From: Gammaproteobacteria bacterium
GTDB taxonomy: Bacteria; Pseudomonadota; Gammaproteobacteria; JAKDMP01
Assembly: GCA_050739575.1 (NCBI GenBank)
Contig: JBOIBN010000001.1
Coordinates: 26,608 to 90,607, forward strand
Length of the DNA stretch: 64,000 bases
Reading direction: 5' to 3'
Positions 67 through 20,941 of this stretch are shown piece by piece. The translations under genes and the position numbers were made by a program. How positions within the stretch are numbered: the first letter of the stretch is position 1; each line of letters starts with the position of its first letter. The notes under the pieces were generated by a model that saw only the letters and a program-made list of their open reading frames with translations, was not told the origin of the DNA and searched no databases.

Positions 67-360
67 ATGAGTAGCCGCATGAGTATTCGAGCCCTTCCAA
101 AAAAAGCCGGTCTTTTGGAGGACTGGCATCCGGCCGACATCGTGGCCGAGCTGCGCAAGGCGGGCTGGAGCCTACGCAAGTTGGCGATCCATCACGGCTA
201 TAAGGCACCGAGCACACTGAAGAACGCCATTGCCGCGCCGTGGCCGAAGGGCGAACGCCTGATCGCCGAAGCCATCGGCGTCAAGCCCCAGGACATCTGG
301 CCTTCGCGCTTTGCCGAAAGGGCGCGGCGTAAAGCCGAAGCCCAGCGGGAAGCCGCGTGA
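67..360 (+). CDS. ner: Ner-like DNA-binding protein (Mu Ner / Nlp family)
   Basis: The ORF segment DWHPADIVAELRKAGWSLRKLA...WPKGERLIAEAIGVKPQDIWPSRF is collinear with Mu Ner (DWHRADVIAGLKKRKLSLSAL...HWPKGEQIIANALETKPEVIWPSRY). The start may be the second ATG at 79. Confidence 0.85.
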   Translation: MSSRMSIRALPKKAGLLEDWHPADIVAELRKAGWSLRKLAIHHGYKAPSTLKNAIAAPWPKGERLIAEAIGVKPQDIWPSRFAERARRKAEAQREAA

Positions 361-459: not shown

Positions 460-945
460 ATGCCGGGGAAGAATTGGAAACGGGCGCGGGCGCGCTCGAT
501 TTGCCACGGGATAGAACTGTGTCTGGACTTCGCCAGGGAGAAAGGGAACCTTTCCGTCGATCGCGTCGCGGATTTGATGGGGCTTCCGAATAAGTGGGTA
601 CTTTATAAATGGATGGAGTCGGGGCGCATGCCGGCGAACCTAATTCCGCCCTTCGAGCATGCCTGCGGGGCCTCGTTCGTGACCGATTATCTCGGCGGGG
701 TGATCGGCGGCGTGCTGATCAAGATGCCGACGGGCCGAAAGTCGGGACCGGAAGAGGTCGCCGCCCTTCAGCACTCATTCGCCGATGCGATCCAGCAGCT
801 CGCACAGTTCTACGACGGCAAGCGCGGCGCCGAAGAGACGATTGACGCCCTGACCTCGGCGCTCCGCGGCGCGGCCTGGCATCGGGAGAACGTCGCGAAG
901 CTCGCGACGCCGGAGCTGGCGCTCTTCGATGAGGCGCAGACATGA
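460..945 (+). CDS. Phage early-region protein with a central HTH, possibly a CII-like regulator
   Basis: Strong Shine-Dalgarno (AAGGAAGG) 5 nt upstream of the ATG. There is an ATGA overlap with the transposase start. The HTH-like segment VDRVADLMGLPNKWVLYKW weakly resembles lambda CII. Mu itself has no gene at this position. Confidence 0.5.
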   Translation: MPGKNWKRARARSICHGIELCLDFAREKGNLSVDRVADLMGLPNKWVLYKWMESGRMPANLIPPFEHACGASFVTDYLGGVIGGVLIKMPTGRKSGPEEVAALQHSFADAIQQLAQFYDGKRGAEETIDALTSALRGAAWHRENVAKLATPELALFDEAQT

Positions 946-2960
946 AGGAATGGTTTTCGGCGGCAGAATTGGCTGGATTGCCGGGGATGCCAATGACACC
1001 TCGCGGAGTGAACATGGTTGGTGATCGCGGTGGCATACAACGGCGAAAAAAGACGTTTGGAAAGGGATGGGAATATAGTTTTTTGACTTTGCCGGGCGAG
1101 ACGCAGGCGGCTGCGCTCAAGAAGTTCGGGGCTGCGATGCTGCCGGCGCCGGCGGATGGTGACGACGTACCGGCGGCGACGCCGACGAGATCGTCCCGGC
1201 GCGCCGAATTCAAATACGATCCGGAGGCGCTGTGGGCGTGGGCGGCAACGCGGCCGCAGCGGGCGCGCGATCGCGGGGTCGAGCGCGCGGGGCTGCTGAT
1301 GCAGGCGATGCGGCTCGCTGAGGCCGGGCAGGCGTTCGGCGTTGCGATGGAGACGGTCGCGCGGGCGAACGGGATCCCGGTCGTGAATTTGCGGAACTGG
1401 TTTTATGGCGTGAACGGGCATCCCGGCGCGCGGCTGTATGCGCGCAACGACTGGGCCGCGATGCTGGTGCCTTCGTACTGTGGCCGCACGGCGCGGGCCG
1501 AGTGCAGCGAGGAGGCGTGGGACGTCTTCAAGGCGCTGTATCTGCGGCGGCGGGCGCCGAATTGTTCGACCTGCTACGAGCAGGTCGCGAAGATCGCCGC
1601 CGCCAAGGGCTGGGACTGGCCGTCGCAGGCGACGATCCTGCGCCGGGTGCGGGAGCTGCCGCGCGCGGTGCGGGTGCTGGCGCGCGAGGGCGCGGAAGCG
1701 CTCGACCTTTTGATGCCGGCGATGACGCGCGACCGCAGCGGCTTCCACGCGATGGAGGCGGTAAACGGCGACGGCATCGAGTGGAAGCGCTATTGCGTGT
1801 GGCCGGACGGCGAAGTGGCGCGGCCGCACACGTGGATTACGCAGGATCTGTACAGCAACAAGCTGCTCGCGTGGCGCACGGATCGCAGCGAGAACAAGGG
1901 CATGTTCCGGCTCGCCTATGGCGACCTGGTCGAGCGCTTCGGAATCCCGATCTTCTATTACATCGACAACACGATGGCGGCGGCGAGCAAGTGGATGACC
2001 GGCGGCACGCCAAACCGGTACCGCTGGCCGATCAAGGACGAAGACCCGATCGGAATCATGCCGCAGATGGGCACCGAAGTGCGTTTCGTGCAGCCCGGTC
2101 ACGGGCAATCCAAACCGATCGAGCGCGCGAACCGGGAGCTGCGCGAGCGGGTGGATGTTCATCCGCAGTTCGAGGGACGCGGGACGCCGGGACGGCCGAT
2201 CCCGATTGCCGACTTCGTGACGTTGATGGAGGCCGAATTCGCGGCCTATAACGCGAAAAGCGCGCGCCGGGTGCCGAACGCGGCCGGGCGCAGCTTCGAC
2301 GAGACCTTCAACGCGAGTTATTCGAGCGCGCCGATCCGCAAAGCGACCGCCGAGCAGCGGCGCCTGTGGCTGCTGGCCGCCGAGCGCATCTATGCTCAAC
2401 GCGACAACGGCTCGATCGTGCTCGGGCGCGGCCCGCACGGGGAGAACCGTTATTGGAGTGAAGCGCTGGCGCCTTATGCCGGGCAGCATGTCGTAGTGCG
2501 CTTCGATCCGCAGGATTTCAGTCGGCCGGTGCACGTGTACGAGGTCGGCGGCCAGTACGTCGGCGAAGCGCCGTGCACCTGGCAGGCCGGTTTCGCCGAT
2601 GCCGAGTCCGCACAGACCTATCACCGCGAGCGTTCCCGCTGGAAGCGCGACAGAAGGAACGCGCTGGAATCCGAGAAGCGCATGACGACGGCCGCGGCGG
2701 CTTCGCTGATCGAGACACCGCAGCCGGAAGAGCCGCCGGAATCGAAGGTGGTGCAGTTGATGCGCCCGCGGCTGCAACGCGCGGCCAATCACGATGTTGA
2801 CCATGACGACGAGGACGGCGAAAACGAACAGCACTTCATGGCCGCAATGGCGAAATTAACGGGTCCAGTGCGCGATCTGGAGGCCGAACGCGAGGAACGC
2901 GAGCGACATTTCGGGGCCGCCGTCGCGCAGATGAAGGTGCCGGGGAGTTCGTTGTTGTGA
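942..2960 (+). CDS. MuA-family DDE transposase (transposase A)
   Basis: The N-terminus WFSAAELAGLPGMP is like Mu-like A proteins. The catalytic region HAMEAVNGDGI, RFGIPIFYYIDNTMAAASKWMTGGTPNRYRW and VVVRFDPQDF aligns to MuA [44 protein letters not shown] and VVVRFDPQQL. Confidence 0.9.
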   Translation: MKEWFSAAELAGLPGMPMTPRGVNMVGDRGGIQRRKKTFGKGWEYSFLTLPGETQAAALKKFGAAMLPAPADGDDVPAATPTRSSRRAEFKYDPEALWAWAATRPQRARDRGVERAGLLMQAMRLAEAGQAFGVAMETVARANGIPVVNLRNWFYGVNGHPGARLYARNDWAAMLVPSYCGRTARAECSEEAWDVFKALYLRRRAPNCSTCYEQVAKIAAAKGWDWPSQATILRRVRELPRAVRVLAREGAEALDLLMPAMTRDRSGFHAMEAVNGDGIEWKRYCVWPDGEVARPHTWITQDLYSNKLLAWRTDRSENKGMFRLAYGDLVERFGIPIFYYIDNTMAAASKWMTGGTPNRYRWPIKDEDPIGIMPQMGTEVRFVQPGHGQSKPIERANRELRERVDVHPQFEGRGTPGRPIPIADFVTLMEAEFAAYNAKSARRVPNAAGRSFDETFNASYSSAPIRKATAEQRRLWLLAAERIYAQRDNGSIVLGRGPHGENRYWSEALAPYAGQHVVVRFDPQDFSRPVHVYEVGGQYVGEAPCTWQAGFADAESAQTYHRERSRWKRDRRNALESEKRMTTAAAASLIETPQPEEPPESKVVQLMRPRLQRAANHDVDHDDEDGENEQHFMAAMAKLTGPVRDLEAEREERERHFGAAVAQMKVPGSSLL

Positions 2961-3332: not shown

Positions 3333-3932
3333 ATGGCTGTAACGGCTATTTCAATGCGGTCCATCTCGGATCGTAATTTGCGCGGCGAGGTTGCCGCGCT
3401 TATTGCGAGCGAGAACGGCCCGTCACAGGCGACCTTGTCGCGCGAGGCGGGACTGTCGCCGAGCGCGCTCAACCAGTGGCTGCGGGAACGCTACGCGGGC
3501 GATAACCTCGCGGTCGAGATCAAGCTTTCGCAGTATCTCGAAACCTATTACGCCCGGCTCGCGCGCGAGAAGGCGTTGCCGCAGGCTCCGGGCTGGATTG
3601 CGACGCCGACCTCGGAGCGGATCCTGCAGACGCTCGGCTATGCGCAGATCGCGGGCGACATCGTGATCGTGTACGGCGGCGCGCTCGACGAGCAGGACTG
3701 GGGCATTGACGGCGCCGGCGCGCCGGTCGCCATACGCTCGGAGAATCTGTATTCGGGCGCCATCGATGCGCTGAAGGTCGGCTTGTGGGGCCTGCGCTGG
3801 GAGCAGCGCTTCACGCTCGATGCCGTTGATCCGGCGACGCTCGCGCCGTTCCTCACTTTCCACGAAGATACCGACATGGCGCCGGCCGACGGCGTGATCG
3901 ACATGTCGGAAACCGACGAACTGCAGCAATAG
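3333..3932 (+). CDS. MuB-like protein, N-terminal HTH domain retained, Walker A degenerate (probable non-ATPase remnant)
   Basis: LNQWLRERYAGDNLAVEIKLSQYLE aligns to MuB ISSFINDKYNGDNERVSQMLQRWLE. The segment aligning to the MuB P-loop IAVVCGNPGVGKTEAA reads IVIVYGGALDEQDWGI. The protein is 199 aa against ~312 aa in MuB. Confidence 0.55.
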   Translation: MAVTAISMRSISDRNLRGEVAALIASENGPSQATLSREAGLSPSALNQWLRERYAGDNLAVEIKLSQYLETYYARLAREKALPQAPGWIATPTSERILQTLGYAQIAGDIVIVYGGALDEQDWGIDGAGAPVAIRSENLYSGAIDALKVGLWGLRWEQRFTLDAVDPATLAPFLTFHEDTDMAPADGVIDMSETDELQQ

Positions 3933-6299: not shown

Positions 6300-6445
6300 A
6301 GGGCCTGCATCAAAAAACCCTTTTGCTCGCGCGCAAAACCGGCTGGACCCGAAGCGAGATTCTTGGGCTGTCACGTTCGGAGTTCGATTTTTATGTAGAG
6401 ACGCTGATCGAGTGGAGCACAGAGGAAGACGAATACGATGAGTGA
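6001..6445 (+). CDS. Predicted -1 frameshift fusion product of the tail assembly chaperone (G-T-like)
   Basis: Slippery heptamers G GGA AAA and A AAA AAC are in the zero frame at 6275-6284. The -1 frame runs open for 55 codons (KKRTGELKGLHQKTLLLARKTGWTRSEILGLSRSEFDFYVETLIEWSTEEDEYDE) and ends at 6445, overlapping the tape measure start. Confidence 0.55.
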
Positions 6446-8408
6446 CAGCACCCTCGATCTCGCCATGCGCATCACCGCAATAGATGTCTTCAGCGGGGTG
6501 CTGAATCGCTTCCGCACGCAGATCATGGGCGCGGGGGCGCAGTCCAAAGAATTGATGCGCGACTACGACCTCGCGCTTTCCAACATCCGCAAGGGGTTCA
6601 ACGGGCTCGCAGCCGCCAAGTACGGCTTCGACAAAATGAAGCCCGCGCTCGACAACGCTGCGAAGCTCCAGCAGGCGACGCTTGCCTTCTCGCAGATCCT
6701 GCAGGGCGCCCATCCGAACGCGAAGAAGCTCGCCGATCAAATGCAGCGCGTCAGCGACAATGCCATCAGCGTGGCGCGGCACATGAAATACAGCGCCATC
6801 GAGGTCATGGACGTCTCGCGGCTGCTCTACAAGTCCGGCATTCCGCTCGCGGCCATTCTCGACCGCGTGGGCAAAAGCGGCAAGACCATTTACGGCCTCG
6901 CCTACTACACCGAGGCGCTCGCCGAGACGCAGGGCACGACGCCGCAAGAGACGGCGGCGCAGATCGGCAACGTCGGCCATGCGTTCCGGTTGAAGCCGAA
7001 CCAATATGCGCGCGCCATCAACCTGATCACGCAGGCGCAACCGGTCGCATCCGGTTCGCTCACCGAGCTGTTCCACAATCTGGCCCAGTCGGGCGCCATT
7101 ACCAAATACCTCAGCCATACGAGCCTGCTCAGCCTGCTGGCGGGACTTAAAACGGTAGCGCCGCTTGGTGAAGAGGGGGGTACCGATTTCGCGACCATGC
7201 TGGAGACCTTCGGATCCATGCGGGTGCGCGGCAAAAAATATCTGCAAAAATATGGACTGAATTTTTACGATAAACAGGGCCAATTCCTGGGCCTCGATAA
7301 ATCGTTAGACGTGCTGCGTAAAACCATTGCGGCGCGGCACTGGACGCCAGAGCAGATAAACAAGATTTTGGGACCCATCTTCGGGCAACAGGGACTCAAG
7401 GCCATCGCGCTGATGACCGCGCCGAACGCGCCGGGAGTGAAAAGTTACCAGGAAATCAAAAAATCGATCACGGAGCAGGCCAACCTCAGTCAGCAACGGA
7501 TCGAGTGGGAGAAGGGTTACCTCGCGCAGCTTTCCGAGCTGAAGACTACGGGGCAAACGTTGAGCGCGGTGCTCGCAACGCCGGTCCTGAGCCCGACCGT
7601 CGGCGTGATGAAAACGCTGAACGACTGGATGGGCGATTTCACGCTCGCCGCCCATCATCACAAGTCCATCGGCATCGCCGCGACGGCCGCAGGGGGCGCC
7701 GCGCTTGCCGCCGCCGTCGGCTATTCGGCCTGGAATCTGATCAAAACGATAAAGCCCGGCAGCCACGTACTGCGCAGCCTGCTCGGCAAAGGCGGGGGCT
7801 TGGCCGCCCGCATCGGCGAAGGCAAGCTTATCCAAAAAGTCGCCGGGGTGCCGTCGGTCTTCGTGGTGAATATGCCCTCCGGTGGGCTTCCGGCGCCGGC
7901 CGGAGGCATCCCCCCGGGCGGCTCACGGATTTTGCTGCCGCCATCATTCGGCGAGAGAGGCGCGGCGATCGCGGCAGGCAGCATTGCCGCGCGCCTGAAG
8001 GGCTTCTTGCTGGCGCCGGCGTTGGCATCCATCAGCTCGGCAAAAGGATTGAAGGCGACCGCGGGCGCGGCCGGGAAACTCGTCGGTGCATTGGGACTCG
8101 CCGCCAGCGCCGGTTGGGCATTAGGCAAGGCGCTCGACCGCATCCCCGCCGTGCACAGTTTCTTCGACAAGGAGTTCCAGAACAGTCTGGCGAATGCAGT
8201 GATCACGGCTGCTTCCGGCGCGAACAAGAATGCGGTCGAATTGACCCGCGGCGCGCAACTGGAGCGCGCATGGCGCACGCAGCACAAGGACTTCAAGGGC
8301 GCGATCAAGATCACGATCGATAGCAAGGGCAAAGCGCATGTGACCGAGCTGCGCAGTAGCACACCGCGCGTGAACCTGAGCGTCGGCCATGCGATGAGCA
8401 CGCCGTGA
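6438..8408 (+). CDS. Tail tape measure protein
   Basis: 656 aa, helical and Gly/Ala-rich, located after the chaperone and its frameshift extension. Confidence 0.85.
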   Translation: MSDSTLDLAMRITAIDVFSGVLNRFRTQIMGAGAQSKELMRDYDLALSNIRKGFNGLAAAKYGFDKMKPALDNAAKLQQATLAFSQILQGAHPNAKKLADQMQRVSDNAISVARHMKYSAIEVMDVSRLLYKSGIPLAAILDRVGKSGKTIYGLAYYTEALAETQGTTPQETAAQIGNVGHAFRLKPNQYARAINLITQAQPVASGSLTELFHNLAQSGAITKYLSHTSLLSLLAGLKTVAPLGEEGGTDFATMLETFGSMRVRGKKYLQKYGLNFYDKQGQFLGLDKSLDVLRKTIAARHWTPEQINKILGPIFGQQGLKAIALMTAPNAPGVKSYQEIKKSITEQANLSQQRIEWEKGYLAQLSELKTTGQTLSAVLATPVLSPTVGVMKTLNDWMGDFTLAAHHHKSIGIAATAAGGAALAAAVGYSAWNLIKTIKPGSHVLRSLLGKGGGLAARIGEGKLIQKVAGVPSVFVVNMPSGGLPAPAGGIPPGGSRILLPPSFGERGAAIAAGSIAARLKGFLLAPALASISSAKGLKATAGAAGKLVGALGLAASAGWALGKALDRIPAVHSFFDKEFQNSLANAVITAASGANKNAVELTRGAQLERAWRTQHKDFKGAIKITIDSKGKAHVTELRSSTPRVNLSVGHAMSTP

Positions 8409-8410
8409 TG

Positions 8411-8749
8411 TCAGGGCGTTACGAACATCGCGCCGGTCCAGTAGGAATAGACCTGGCCTTTCGGTCTGATCTTGACGAGACGGCCGTCCGTGGTCATGTC
8501 TTCGATATAGACCGCCTCTCCCGACGTGAGCGCAACGCATTGGCCCGCGTTGACGCCTTCGGCAAGAAGCTCTTCGGCGGTCTGCTTGTCGCCCTCCGCC
8601 GCTATGGTTGCGATCTTGTCGAAAAGCGCCTGAGACTGGCATCCGGCGACGTTCGCGTTGATATGGCTCGGTCCTGTCGGAGCGGCTTGCGCGGACGTGG
8701 CCGAAGCCAGCGCCGCCAGCGCGGCTATGAAAAAGGCTTTACGCATCAT
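8411..8749 (-). CDS. Small secreted protein (signal peptide, 2 Cys), antisense moron inside the tail operon
   Basis: It exactly fills the 380-bp gap between the tape measure and N genes on the opposite strand. The Shine-Dalgarno is GAGGGGGA. The signal peptide is MMRKAFFIAALAALASATSAQA. GC3 is high, like that of its neighbours. Confidence 0.6.
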   Translation of the reverse strand: MMRKAFFIAALAALASATSAQAAPTGPSHINANVAGCQSQALFDKIATIAAEGDKQTAEELLAEGVNAGQCVALTSGEAVYIEDMTTDGRLVKIRPKGQVYSYWTGAMFVTP

Positions 8750-8787
8750 TTGAATCCCCCTCGAATGGTGGCCCGGAGCATAGCACC

Positions 8788-10029
8788 GTGAGCTGGCGCG
8801 ATCAAATGCTGCCGGGCTCCTTCCGCGGCGCGCCGTTCCTGATCAAGGTGGCGCGCACGGGCGTCGGGCGGCGCACGGAGCTGCATCAGTATCCGCTGCG
8901 CGATACGCCGTGGGCGGAGGATCTTGGGCGCCACGCGCGGAGCTTCACGGTGGAATGCTTCGTGCTCGGGGCGGACTACATGAGCCAGCGCAATGCGCTG
9001 ATGGATGCGCTCGAACAGGGCGGCGCGGGCACATTAGTGCATCCGTATCTGGGGACGAAGAGCGTCGTCGTTAACGGCAGCGCGGACATCACCGAGGACA
9101 CCGCCGAGGGCGGGATGGCGCGCTTCTCGATTCCGTTCGCTGAAAGCGGCCAGAAGCTCGAGCCGGCGGCGGCGACCGATACGGCCGGTGCGGTCGCCGA
9201 TCAGGCGTCAGCGGGCAATGCGGCGCTTGCGACGCAGTTCAGCGACGACTTCGCGACCGAAGGGTATCCGCAGTGGGTGCAGGACGCGGCGAGCGCGAAC
9301 ACGAACGAGTTGACGGACACGCTCGATTCGCTGCGGAGTTCCATTCCCGGCATTCCCGATTCCGTGGTGGCGTTCGATTCGCAGCTCGCGGAATTCAGCC
9401 AATCGCTCGCGAGCCTGATTCGCACGCCGTACAACCTGGCGGCGTCTGTGGTGAGCTTGATCGCGGGCCTCGGCACGATCGCCGAGCAGCCGCTGGATGC
9501 GGTGAATCTCTATTCCACGCTGTCGACCTGGCAACCCTCCGGACCGCTGCCGGCGGCGACGACGCCGGCGCGTGCGCAGGCGGCAGCGAACCAGCAGGCG
9601 CTGACGGATCTTGTGCAGCGCACGGCGATCATGCAGCAGGGCGCGGCTGCGTCGCGGGTGCCGGCGCAGAGCGGCACGGATACATCGGTGGACGGCACGC
9701 CGCTCGCGGGTTACGACACGGCCGATGTGGCGCTTGCCGTGCGCGATGCGATTACCGGTTCGATCGATACGCAGCAGCTCACGGCGCCCGACGCGGTATT
9801 CGATGCGCTGACGGATCTGCGCGCGGCCGTGGTGACCGACTTCGATGCGCGCGCGGGAGCGCTCCCTTCGCTGGTGACTTTCACGCCGGCGACGGATCTG
9901 CCGGCGACCGTGATCGCCTGGCGTCTGTACGCGGATGCGAGCCGCGATGCGGAGATCGTGCAGCGCAACGCCGTGGTCTATCCCGGAGCGGTGCCCGGCG
10001 GCGCGCCGCTGGAGGTGGCCAGTGCCTGA
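8788..10029 (+). CDS. DNA circulation protein (Mu gpN-like)
   Basis: 413 aa with a GTG start and GGAG Shine-Dalgarno. It sits at the Mu N position, after the tape measure and before P. Confidence 0.8.
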   Translation: MSWRDQMLPGSFRGAPFLIKVARTGVGRRTELHQYPLRDTPWAEDLGRHARSFTVECFVLGADYMSQRNALMDALEQGGAGTLVHPYLGTKSVVVNGSADITEDTAEGGMARFSIPFAESGQKLEPAAATDTAGAVADQASAGNAALATQFSDDFATEGYPQWVQDAASANTNELTDTLDSLRSSIPGIPDSVVAFDSQLAEFSQSLASLIRTPYNLAASVVSLIAGLGTIAEQPLDAVNLYSTLSTWQPSGPLPAATTPARAQAAANQQALTDLVQRTAIMQQGAAASRVPAQSGTDTSVDGTPLAGYDTADVALAVRDAITGSIDTQQLTAPDAVFDALTDLRAAVVTDFDARAGALPSLVTFTPATDLPATVIAWRLYADASRDAEIVQRNAVVYPGAVPGGAPLEVASA

Positions 10030-19214: not shown

Positions 19215-19516
19215 ACGTGGCCACCATCTACATCGGCCGAGACAATCCGTTCAAATTGCAGGCGTCGGAAGACGGCGCCTCGATCGACCTGAGCGGCGTC
19301 ACCAAGATGGCGGTACGCGTCGGTGCAGCCGATACCGATTCCGATGCGAATCCGATACTCTTCGACTGGAGCGCCGGCGACGGCGTCGTCAGCATAATCG
19401 TCGGGCTCGTCCCCCAATTGAGCGCAGGCGCGAAACGGCTGCGTCTCATCGCCTATTCAGACGCATGGCCCGATGGGATCGTGCTGGGCGATCTTCCCGT
19501 CGATGTCACCGCGTGA
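19211..19516 (+). CDS. Hypothetical protein (101 aa)
   Basis: The ORF overlaps the upstream stop. The start codon is uncertain (TTG or GTG). Confidence 0.3.
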   Translation: MNVATIYIGRDNPFKLQASEDGASIDLSGVTKMAVRVGAADTDSDANPILFDWSAGDGVVSIIVGLVPQLSAGAKRLRLIAYSDAWPDGIVLGDLPVDVTA

Positions 19517-19544
19517 TTGGCCTCATCAACTTTGGAGCATCCCC

Positions 19545-20678
19545 ATGAATACCCTAAAATCCATCGGCTGCGCGATACTCAAAATTTTCGGGCATCCGTG
19601 TACGCAACCGCCGATGCCTTCCGCATTGCCGCGCCAACGCGGCGTCGTTTGCGTGTTCGGCGGCGCCGGCGGTGTCCAGCCGGGGATGCTGCAAACGCTG
19701 CGCGATACGTTCGGGCCGAACTGCAACAGCGTGCGGCTGTATCTTCACCTAAAGAATGTCGCCGCTGCCGCCAAGATCACGCTCGCCGGAGCCGAGCAGC
19801 TCGCTTATGCCTGGGCGGACGCAATGCTCGACGAGGCTTCGAAGCTCGGCATGAATTGCTGGATTCACCGCCGCTACTTCTACATGCCGGACGGCACGCT
19901 GATTGATCGCACGAGTCCGGACTTCTGGAACAATGTGAACGGCCAATTCGACCAGGCGCTCTCGCAGGTCACGGCAATGGCCACGCACTTCCACGCCCAC
20001 GGTGCGGAACTGGCGGGCTACGACATCATCAGCGAGCCCGTCGCGATCGTGAACGGCGTGGACCAAGTGCCGCCGGGCTATCTCGCGCGCCAGATCCAGA
20101 TCCTCGACGCGCTCGACAGCGGCGATGCCGCGCTCACGTCGAAGAACGGCACGCGCTACGCGATCGCCAAATTCGCCCCGTGGGCCGGTGCGGTCGGCTA
20201 TGCTGGCCAGCAGCCTGTTCCCGGCTTCCCGCGTCTCGTTTACGGCGTCCACTTCTACCAACCCAGGCCGTCCGTCTATGCGGGCGTCGAGAAACCCTAC
20301 GGCTTCCCCGGTCCCGGCTGGCCGTGCACGATTGGCACGACGGCATGGAATGCGGCCGAGTTGCAGAAGGTGTTGCAGCCGGCTCTCGACTTCGGGTCCA
20401 CCTACGGCGTGCGCATGAGTCTGAGCGAGTTCAGCTACGCCCGCTGGAGCGCCGGCGGCGAGCAGTGGCTGAGCGACCTCATCGGCATCGTCGAAGCCGC
20501 CGGCTGGGACTGGAACTATTTCATGGTCGGCGCCGCGCCTGGCGTGGTCGCTCAATGCTGGGCGGCCGAATACGATGCCTCCTTCACCCCGGCCGCCTTC
20601 GGCCTTCCGGGCGAAGTCGGCATCGGCGCATCGCCGCGCGGCAAAGCCCTAGCCAGCATTTTCCAGGCCATCAAGTAA
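19545..20678 (+). CDS. Glycoside hydrolase family 5-like protein (cellulase superfamily), last gene of the element
   Basis: GGAGCA lies 6 nt upstream of the ATG. The candidate acid/base Glu is in YDIISEP (GH5 NEP position). The candidate nucleophile Glu is in MSLSEFSY. VHFY lies between them. Confidence 0.45.
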   Translation: MNTLKSIGCAILKIFGHPCTQPPMPSALPRQRGVVCVFGGAGGVQPGMLQTLRDTFGPNCNSVRLYLHLKNVAAAAKITLAGAEQLAYAWADAMLDEASKLGMNCWIHRRYFYMPDGTLIDRTSPDFWNNVNGQFDQALSQVTAMATHFHAHGAELAGYDIISEPVAIVNGVDQVPPGYLARQIQILDALDSGDAALTSKNGTRYAIAKFAPWAGAVGYAGQQPVPGFPRLVYGVHFYQPRPSVYAGVEKPYGFPGPGWPCTIGTTAWNAAELQKVLQPALDFGSTYGVRMSLSEFSYARWSAGGEQWLSDLIGIVEAAGWDWNYFMVGAAPGVVAQCWAAEYDASFTPAAFGLPGEVGIGASPRGKALASIFQAIK

Positions 20679-20689
20679 GGAGAGCGGCC

Positions 20690-20941
20690 GAACGTTGTTT
20701 GCGCAACGTCTTCGCCGGCCTGGCGATGGAAAGTATCCCGATCCGGTACACGGTGGGCGGCGGCGCCGGCGTCGAACGCCAGGAACTGATCATCCGTTCG
20801 CGCCCCGACGGCTGGACCGGTCAGGGGCGCCTTTTATGACCCTTTACAGGCCTATAATTCGTCGTTCAGGGGTCGCCGCCTGCCGTGAAATTTCTTCGCA
20901 AACCAAGTGATCCAGATTCGCAAACCAAGTGAACGCTTACA
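20690..20941 (+). repeat. Mu-type right end (attR): three transposase-binding repeats, two direct and one inverted, with a terminal ...CA
   Basis: TTCGCAAACCAAGTGA occurs at 20895-20910 and again at 20917-20932. An inverted copy, CGTTGTTTGCGCAACG, lies at ~20690-20706. The reverse complement of the terminus, TGTAAGCGTTCACTTGGTTTGCGAA, resembles the Mu L1 site TGTATTGATTCACTTGAAGTACGAAAA. Confidence 0.6.

Follow-up and report, generated by a model that had tools for sequence, protein, structure and literature searches.

Between the tape measure gene and the DNA-circulation gene of a Mu-like element lies a small open reading frame (ORF) that is read against the direction of its neighbours. An earlier reading, made from the letters of the DNA alone (here called the sequence-only reading), had proposed that it encodes a secreted moron. 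This raises the questions whether the ORF is a gene at all, where its product would act, how it came to lie at this position, and what it could do for the element or its host. The analysis started from a stretch of 64,000 nucleotides, which is called the window throughout.

The antisense ORF and its surroundings

The ORF was found in the sequence and in the ORF list as it had been described, and the features of the locus are collected in Table 1. It is embedded in a Mu-type contractile-tail module with genes for sheath, tube, gp41, the tape measure protein (TMP), gp43, gpP, gp45, gp46, Baseplate_J and gp48, and the neighbours that had been named (a PhageMin_Tail tape measure, DNA_circ_N, Mu gpP, gp45, sheath and tube) were recovered. 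The sequence-only reading had spoken of an otherwise empty gap of about 380 bp; the distance from the TMP gene to the DNA-circulation gene is indeed 379 bp, and 339 bp of it are occupied by the ORF. It is convergent with the TMP gene, again as described, with the TGA of the TMP gene at 8406-8408 and 2 nt between the two stop codons. At the other end, 38 nt separate the ATGATG start from the start of the DNA-circulation gene. The Shine-Dalgarno sequence that had been claimed was also located, i.e., the purine-rich GAGGGGGA, and purine-rich equivalents lie upstream of the starts of the orthologues as well. The full 112-aa product has the sequence MMRKAFFIAALAALASATSAQAAPTGPSHINANVAGCQSQALFDKIATIAAEGDKQTAEELLAEGVNAGQCVALTSGEAVYIEDMTTDGRLVKIRPKGQVYSYWTGAMFVTP.

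Table 1. Features of the antisense locus, with coordinates in the window.
Feature	Coordinates	Strand	Description	Basis
Minus-strand gene (putative moron)	8411..8749	-	112 aa, stop at 8411-8413; precursor of predicted secreted SH3b-like protein	ORF list and sequence
Predicted Sec (SPase I) signal peptide, residues 1-22	8684..8749	-	MMRK / AFFIAALAALASATS / AQA, predicted cleavage before A	inspection
Mature region, residues 23-112	8414..8683	-	predicted folded domain, about residues 28-112, SH3-like barrel and two-helix hairpin	
Tape measure (TMP) gene	6438..8408	+	upstream flank of the slot	PF10145 (PhageMin_Tail) and tape-measure PHROGs
Mu gp43-like DNA-circulation / baseplate hub gene	8788..10029	+	downstream flank of the slot	PF07157 (DNA_circ_N), phrog_184
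2-nt spacer between the convergent stops of the TMP gene and the minus-strand gene	8409..8410	.	conserved insertion junction	
Shine-Dalgarno-like, purine-rich GAGGGGGA	8755..8762	-	5 nt upstream of ATGATG	read from sequence
Candidate weak sigma-70-type promoter	8777..8805	-	TTGATC 8805-8800, 17-nt spacer, TG 8785-8784, TATGCT 8782-8777	inferred from sequence
Shadow ORF, 128 aa	8405..8791	+	codon-aligned antisense to the minus-strand gene; not a gene	

The host element is a "headless" Mu-like transposable element of about 21.7 kb. A Ner-like HTH_35 gene, a MuA transposase gene (942-2960) and an intact tail module were identified in it; genes for MuB, lysis, the terminase, the portal and the capsid are missing. 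The 199-aa ORF at 3333-3932 has a gp37-like match over its last 85 residues only, which suggests a deletion junction. The ends of the element are marked by MuA-site-like repeats (TTCACTTGGTTTGCGAA), with the right terminus near 20941, and CCTCCGATT is common to both flanks of the element. The claim that the ORF is the only minus-strand gene of the element held for the part within the window, but not for the left end, which lies outside the window and contains a 124-aa ORF of the same orientation in the position of a repressor gene.

The minus-strand ORF is a genuine gene

GC-rich DNA yields long antisense ORFs, and they are common at a GC content of 62-68%. The ORF at 8411-8749 could thus be a chance product, with the plus-strand ORF opposite to it (8405-8791) as the true gene. 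This plus-strand ORF is neatly coupled to both neighbours, because its GTG start overlaps the TMP stop and its end lies inside the start codon of the DNA-circulation gene. However, its codon score was -0.18, its GC3 was as low as 0.605, its product would be Arg-rich, and its first codon positions were the most variable ones among the orthologues. In addition, a codon-aligned antisense frame remains open wherever the codons TTA, CTA and TCA are avoided. The plus-strand ORF was therefore rejected as a gene on the basis of its negative codon score, its low GC3 and the pattern over the codon positions.

The minus frame was the best of the six frames and the only one with a positive codon log-likelihood (+0.26), using the element's own tail genes for comparison. 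Its GC3 was 0.735, versus 0.80-0.89 in the neighbouring tail genes, and its overall GC content of 0.614 was near that of the TMP gene (0.620). Across the seven orthologues described below, the differences at the minus-frame codon positions 1, 2 and 3 numbered 792, 668 and 1117, and, thus, the third position was the most variable. The dN/dS values ranged from 0.15 to 0.70 among the orthologue pairs with unsaturated dS; the dS was saturated in many pairs, and the values are thus rough. Judged from these substitution patterns, the protein is under purifying selection. The minus-frame product also has hundreds of homologues and a model with a pLDDT of 98. The ORF is a genuine gene, and the explanation as a chance ORF is already refuted, with a negligible residual probability.

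Predicted export and fold of the product

The sequence-only reading had predicted a Sec signal peptide, and inspection led to the same result. The N-terminus MMRKAFFIAALAALASATSAQA, which is followed by AP, shows an n/h/c layout with a positive n-region, a hydrophobic h-region and an AXA motif at -3/-1, as is characteristic for export via Sec and cleavage by SPase I. From these sequence features it is very probable that the product is targeted to the periplasm. The mature product has a predicted mass of about 9.5 kDa.

The protein contains exactly two cysteines, C37 and C71, in agreement with the number given before. AlphaFold2, used with the family alignment, yielded a model with a mean pLDDT of 89.7 and of about 98 across the domain, while the N-terminal helix had a low pLDDT. 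In the model, two strands are followed by a helical hairpin (helices 40-51 and 55-67), and this by four further strands. Both cysteines sit in the strands that flank the hairpin, and, thus, a C37-C71 disulfide clamp is likely in the modelled structure. D54 and C71 are invariant in the family, and at least 90% of the members share C37, G77, R95, G98 and W104. The family consensus is GCxS...GDxxAF...GxC..F..G..VY..D....SGL.KVR..G....YWT.

The predicted fold is SH3b-like, and the modelled domain contains the five-stranded barrel of the SH3 type. With Foldseek, the C-terminal 41 residues could be aligned with the SH3 domains of Abl, Fyn and Src. The closest folds were the SH3b domains of NlpC/P60 peptidoglycan endopeptidases (gamma-D-glutamyl-L-diamino acid endopeptidases; PDB 3h41 YkfC, 6sqx, 3m1u and 3pvq), with an identity of 16-18%. 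SH3 folds accept many kinds of ligands, and, thus, the target cannot be deduced from a likeness of the fold at an identity of 16-18%. Unlike the endopeptidases, the product stands alone, has no catalytic domain, has a conserved Cys pair, and does not match Pfam SH3_3 or SH3_4. None of the curated SH3b families (Pfam SH3_3, SH3_4, SH3_5 and others) matched the product or 68 family members at E<=1. According to the model, the product thus groups with SH3b domains by fold, and lies outside every curated SH3b sequence family. Taken together, the reading as a moron with a periplasmic SH3b-like product is highly probable.

The gene is antisense, its product has a predicted signal peptide, and the proline-rich features of o-spanins are lacking. 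By inference from these points, readings as a spanin, another lysis protein or a component of the virion were rejected.

The product belongs to a large unnamed family

According to the sequence-only reading the protein had no recognisable family. For the curated libraries this was correct. Pfam, PHROGs and NCBIfam contained no above-threshold match for the protein or for 68 relatives, and a sub-threshold match to Sap1 was the only one that recurred. PADLOC had no match for nine family members, and the only PDB matches of the sequence profile were chance ones (E>0.1), to helical proteins designed de novo. Beyond the curated libraries the claim did not hold, because the protein is a member of a large, unnamed family. 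When the mature region was used in an exhaustive HMMER search, 395 related cluster representatives were retrieved at E<=1e-3, and for 11 of these E was 1e-10 or lower. The clusters were defined at 50% identity, and the family thus comprises at least 395 clusters. The best homologue (P0002) had an E-value of 3.5e-17 and was 45% identical. A word-indexed protein search with the single sequence retrieved only the protein itself, and with the family profile 18 proteins with uninformative names. The tblastn search against 50,697 cultured phage genomes gave no match, scans of IMG/VR yielded nothing for the protein and nothing for the DNA-circulation protein, and in literature searches no paper on the family or the slot was found.

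Most family members are 100-130 aa long and have a hydrophobic N-terminal segment, which a crude heuristic detected in 80 of 91 small members. Most stem from environmental metagenomes, not from pathogens. Some members are tandem two-domain proteins (P0003 and P0005), in P0062 the family domain is fused to an extra N-terminal domain matching Pfam SH3_3, and in some members it is the C-terminal domain behind zinc-ribbon/TM, TPR or SH3_3 modules. The tandem arrangement and the fusion to SH3_3 form a pattern that is usual for wall-binding modules. Three long candidates with several matched stretches (P0061, P0122 and P0125) contain NHL or FG-GAP beta-propeller repeats, and P0125 also has a Peptidase_M23 domain. 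They were rejected as family members, because the match extended over only about 36-40 residues of the strand region. P0142 was set aside on the same grounds, judged by its match alone, which has only 23 residues in 11 stretches.

The genomic context of several more distant members was also inspected. One gene (P0161, L007) is antisense cargo of an integrase-type prophage, in which a rightward cargo cluster converges on tail-fibre genes. A second prophage (L012) carries its family member (P0011) antisense between a lysis cassette and tail-fibre genes, where it overlaps an Acyl_transf_3 gene. Another (P0014, L094) lies on an integrative island together with genes for an integrase, a resolvase, HTH_3, an EcoRII restriction-modification system, an M78 peptidase and DUF4238, and P0152 (L010) is on a plasmid-like contig with ParE, ParA and Rep. 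P0154 (L009) is located directly upstream of a gene for a 2172-aa Peptidase_M23 protein. Two contexts were uninformative, i.e., P0151 (L005), which adjoins an HTH_3 gene, and P0009 (L093) on a short contig. The prophage, island and plasmid-like contexts indicate that the family is predominantly cargo of mobile elements.

The gene occupies a fixed slot in a clade of Mu-like elements

A lack of conservation in related elements had been named as an observation that would speak against the sequence-only reading. The ORF withstood this check. The slot between the TMP gene and the DNA-circulation gene was found to be occupied, in the same antisense orientation, in seven distinct elements, i.e., in the window and in L004, L011, L013/L014, L015, L016 and L038 (L013 and L014 are identical over the compared region and were counted once). 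The DNA-circulation proteins of the latter six are 50-70% identical to that of the window, and the slot was filled in every related element found with an identity of at least 50%. At identities of 44% or lower it was empty in every assessable element, with the end of the TMP gene at -14 to +72 nt from the start of the DNA-circulation gene. It was also empty in L007, the prophage that carries its family member elsewhere, and in L003, the one distant relative that was obtained by a scan of GTDB genomes with the DNA-circulation protein. Metagenome contigs were scanned with the DNA-circulation profile, and among the resulting 80 loci the family HMM matched only L013/L014, L015, L016 and L038, which are exactly the loci with 50-61% identity of the DNA-circulation protein. 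In each of them the match is antisense and immediately upstream of the DNA-circulation gene. The slot is thus empty in the assessable distant elements, where the TMP gene abuts or overlaps the DNA-circulation gene, and, therefore, the gene is "more DNA" in the sense of the moron definition. We regard its status as a moron as well supported. The term secreted moron thus stands on this extra DNA, on the predicted signal peptide, and on lipobox- or anchor-containing orthologues.

The 2-nt spacer is present in all seven occupied elements, and the junction stop-CA-TCACGGC is identical in six of them. This common stop junction points to one ancestral insertion. In L004, a short contig, the gene for the best homologue is antisense, 2 nt from the TMP stop and 38 nt from the DNA-circulation gene, of which the N-terminal 223 aa are present and 70% identical to the protein of the window. 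L011 is a complete Mu-like prophage that has retained capsid, protease, gp36 and gp37 genes. Its DNA-circulation protein is 57% and its tape measure 40% identical to those of the window, and its slot contains a family member with a lipobox (P0007) that is 35% identical.

The slot orthologues are only 31-62% identical, and these values do not follow those of the flanking gene: in L016 the identity is 62% versus 50% for the DNA-circulation protein, and in L038 it is 33% versus 61%. The export devices also differ. A SPase I signal is predicted in the window, L016 and L004, a lipobox in L011, L038 and L013/L014, and a membrane anchor in L015, and with all three forms the domain would be periplasmic. 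The incongruent identities and the different export devices look as if alleles had been exchanged, or had evolved fast, at a slot that stayed the same.

A candidate promoter

The gene is antisense to the late operon, and separate transcription is therefore required. A consensus pattern scan of 8000-9300 detected neither a consensus promoter nor a terminator; the latter had also been noted by the sequence-only reading. The candidate promoter given in Table 1 matches 8 of 12 consensus positions, and is thus under the threshold of the scan. Its hexamers TTGATC and TATGCT recur in L004 and L016, and all seven occupied elements have a hexamer of the form TAnnCT. This conservation is confounded, because the candidate overlaps the start, the first codons and the ribosome binding site of the DNA-circulation gene.

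Comparison with known systems

The HK97 gp15 work is reportedly that of Juhala et al. in 2000 and Cumby et al. in 2012. The gp15 moron is located next to the tape measure gene, and its product, an envelope protein made from the prophage, prevents the injection of the genome in a manner that depends on the tail of the incoming phage; morons of this type have been described with a promoter and a terminator of their own (PMC3594210). Both gp15 and the gene studied here are a single small addition to a tail operon, beside the tape measure gene, that related phages lack. The product of gp15 goes to the envelope, as is predicted for the present one, and both are assumed to act from the prophage. In contrast to the YebO-like inner-membrane protein gp15, however, the product studied here is a predicted soluble, SH3-like periplasmic protein. 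There is no sequence similarity between the two, and the present gene is antisense, with no clear promoter or terminator found.

T5 Llp, phi80 Cor, TP-J34 Ltp and T4 Spackle are superinfection-exclusion factors, i.e., small phage-encoded periplasmic proteins or lipoproteins that act on the entry step. The alternation between soluble and lipoprotein forms among the slot orthologues resembles that among these factors. Their folds differ from that predicted here, being helical or of the HTH-repeat type for Spackle and Ltp. A sequence relation was not detectable, apart from one family member that matched PF25676 (T4_Spackle) at an E-value of only 0.06.

Structurally similar phage proteins were found in the BFVD, e.g., S5VZL2 of Pseudomonas phage PaBG and A0A858NQ36 of Xanthomonas phage FoX1. 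They are of similar size and were aligned by Foldseek over about the whole length (TM 0.55-0.62, E down to 2e-5), at an identity of 12-22%; none is characterised in the tables consulted. A weaker match at rank 8 (E 0.045) is annotated as "Lipoprotein" in phage PaBG.

Proposed function and alternative explanations

The following course of events is proposed. A single gene would have entered, by one antisense insertion, precisely where the TMP gene and the gp43-like gene of an ancestral Mu-like myovirus meet, and would have been kept in the lineage since. Transcription would most likely start at the weak candidate promoter that overlaps the start of the DNA-circulation gene, and this promoter could already work in the lysogen. 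Export of the product would be by Sec, the 22-residue signal peptide would be removed, and the SH3b-like barrel would fold in the periplasm, its helical hairpin probably clamped by the C37-C71 disulfide. It would then act on its own at the cell envelope, as a binding module. The ligand could be the stem peptide of peptidoglycan, as for those SH3b domains that are closest in structure, or else a part of an arriving phage tail that is exposed to the periplasm. With either ligand the lysogen would be protected, most probably by superinfection exclusion. We assign a probability of roughly 0.5 to this proposal as a whole, i.e., to an inserted moron that encodes a Sec-exported, SH3b-like envelope binder and protects the lysogen by exclusion.

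The exclusion function taken for itself is suggested tentatively, by analogy with the HK97 gp15 moron. Searches for sequence membership in known exclusion, immunity or defence families (PADLOC for nine members; Pfam; PHROGs) were negative, and selection for superinfection exclusion would be indirect in the element of the window, because it has no head genes. A further-reaching version is speculative. It holds that the family is a widespread new class of periplasmic anti-entry factors on prophages, islands and plasmids, that the disulfide-clamped SH3b domain binds the tip of incoming contractile tails or the peptidoglycan that such tails have to penetrate, and that alleles are swapped among Mu-like elements in the fixed slot in an arms race. 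Such an arms race would account for the fast divergence, for the disagreement between the identities of the gene and its flank, and for the switching between soluble, lipoprotein and anchored forms.

Instead of acting on phage entry, the product could be a cell-wall modulator or an immunity factor. The target of its periplasmic SH3b domain would then be peptidoglycan or a peptidoglycan hydrolase (the lysin of the phage itself, one associated with the tail, or an effector of a T6SS or a tailocin), and the domain would shield the wall or tune its cleavage, e.g., against lysis from without or for the timing of lysis. Several observations fit: in NlpC/P60 endopeptidases, the closest SH3b domains contribute to the substrate site, one family member is directly upstream of the Peptidase_M23 gene, tandem-domain members exist, and every anchoring variant puts the domain into the periplasm. 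But similarity to known inhibitors of lysozymes or amidases or to T6SS immunity proteins was not found, in the Mu-like clade the slot has no hydrolase gene next to it, and PhageMin_Tail is the only domain of the TMP. This explanation is thought to be unlikely. The product could also raise the fitness of the host apart from phage defence, as a conversion factor at the surface, in attachment or under envelope stress. The model for this is the surface attachment protein Sap1 of Burkholderia pseudomallei, an envelope-associated virulence factor of about 114 aa (PMC9884982), which has a similar size and location. The NCBIfam equivalog model NF046013 of Sap1 is the only recurring curated match of the family, and a family member in a prophage overlaps the Acyl_transf_3 gene, a classic conversion-type gene. 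However, the match was seen in only three of 68 members (best E 9e-4; E 0.013 for the product of the window), its 15-17 bits (15.6 bits for the product of the window) are far under the cut-off of 125 bits, and homology is unproven. In addition, the match covers the N-terminal half and is limited to the signal peptide and the first helix, and it may thus be driven by composition, and the environmental origin of most members also speaks against this explanation. A role like that of Sap1 is thus quite improbable.

The last alternative is that the antisense transcription is the selected function and the protein is secondary. A minus-strand transcript that extends into the 3' end of the TMP gene would damp leaky expression of the late operon in lysogens. 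Indeed, the two genes converge, their stops are only 2 nt apart and no terminator was found, and read-through into the antisense strand of the TMP gene is therefore likely. The purifying selection on the protein, its conserved Cys, Asp, Arg and Trp residues and its confidently predicted fold speak against this explanation, as do homologues in other contexts without such an antisense geometry, and it is regarded as very improbable.

Significance

Morons in tail operons are well-known phage cargo, and the architecture found here is as such not surprising. The analysis contributes the family, which is uncharacterised, absent from Pfam, PHROGs, NCBIfam and PADLOC, and has a confidently predicted fold. 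All versions that were examined are predicted to be targeted to the periplasm, they recur on prophages and other mobile elements, and in Mu-like phages they occupy a fixed slot throughout a clade. The family is thus a tractable candidate for screens for exclusion or envelope protection, and the complete prophage L011 together with the several allele types offers natural material for comparison. If the exclusion reading is true, the stand-alone SH3b domain would be a new structural class among the periplasmic exclusion factors of Gram-negative bacteria, of which few are known.

The element that carries the moron

The moron, i.e., the 112-aa ORF on the minus strand between the tape-measure and the DNA-circulation gene, which encodes a predicted secreted SH3-like protein, lies within a "headless" Mu-like transposable element of about 21.7 kb. 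The element comprises positions 1-20941 of the window and about 800 bp beyond its left edge, which are covered by the locus L001. The contractile-tail module is complete and intact. No MuB, lysis, terminase, portal, protease or capsid genes were found in the 21.7 kb. The element may represent a prophage in decay or, alternatively, a tailocin-like cluster of tail genes in which the transposase has been retained. Features of the element and of a locus in an unrelated prophage are listed in the table.

Features of the moron-bearing element and of a putative cassette in an unrelated prophage (window coordinates unless stated otherwise)
Feature	Position	Strand	Remark
Ner-like HTH_35 gene	79-360		moron-bearing Mu-like element
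MuA transposase	942-2960		moron-bearing Mu-like element
199-aa ORF	3333-3932	+	partial gp37-like match
128-aa shadow ORF	8405-8791	+	codon-aligned antisense to moron
401-aa ORF	19473-20678	+	inside right end of element, downstream of tail-fibre region
Right-end repeats	~20895-20941		resemble MuA binding sites
Left-end repeats	about -803 to -625 (L001, reverse complement)		resemble MuA binding sites
P0011 and Acyl_transf_3 gene	L012 8001-9295		antisense to surrounding lysis and tail-fibre genes

The 199-aa ORF was compared with the gp37-like protein encoded in L011, where the Mu-like prophage is complete. The identity was 47%, but only across the C-terminal 85 residues, whereas the N-terminal 117 residues had no match to this protein. 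The ORF is probably a fusion that was created when the early, lysis and head genes were deleted. The sole match of the 401-aa ORF was weak (glycoside-hydrolase family 5, Cellulase, E 0.003), and it may encode a tail-associated depolymerase or additional cargo.

At both ends of the element two repeats (TTCACTTGGTTTGCGAA) were detected, which are in tandem at the right end. By analogy, the right terminus (...CGCTTACA) fits the TG...CA rule of Mu. A clear TG terminus was not found at the left end in L001. The two flanks of the element have CCTCCGATT in common, which is within an apparent hairpin terminator of the adjoining thiolase gene. These are nine shared bases, in contrast to the 5-bp target duplication that is expected of Mu.

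The moron, its relatives and its slot

The ORF opposite the moron mimics a translationally coupled gene, because its GTG start overlaps the tape-measure stop and its end falls within the DNA-circulation start codon. However, its codon score was negative and the first codon positions varied most among the orthologues, and it is a codon-aligned antisense shadow of the moron. The equivalent plus-strand stretch is also open in the five moron-carrying metagenome loci (L013, L014, L015, L016 and L038).

The moron, its homologue P0020 and other family members gave weak, recurrent, sub-threshold matches to the surface attachment protein Sap1 (NCBIfam NF046013), a virulence factor of Burkholderia pseudomallei. 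The matches span the signal peptide and the first helix, and reflect either remote homology or a composition effect. In the unrelated prophage of L012, the gene for another member of the family, P0011, extends over the beginning of an Acyl_transf_3 gene of the O-acetyltransferase type, and the pair looks like a two-gene envelope-modification cassette.

Moron alleles in the same slot of other Mu-like elements (L016, L038, L013/L014, L011, L015 and L004) were compared with window positions 8411-8749. The identities of the moron and of the flanking DNA-circulation gene did not track each other: in L016 they were 62% and 50%, respectively, in L038 33% and 61%. The export device also varied among the alleles, i.e., an SPase I signal, a lipobox or a membrane anchor. 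This incongruence, together with the switching of the export device, suggests cassette exchange inside a fixed slot.
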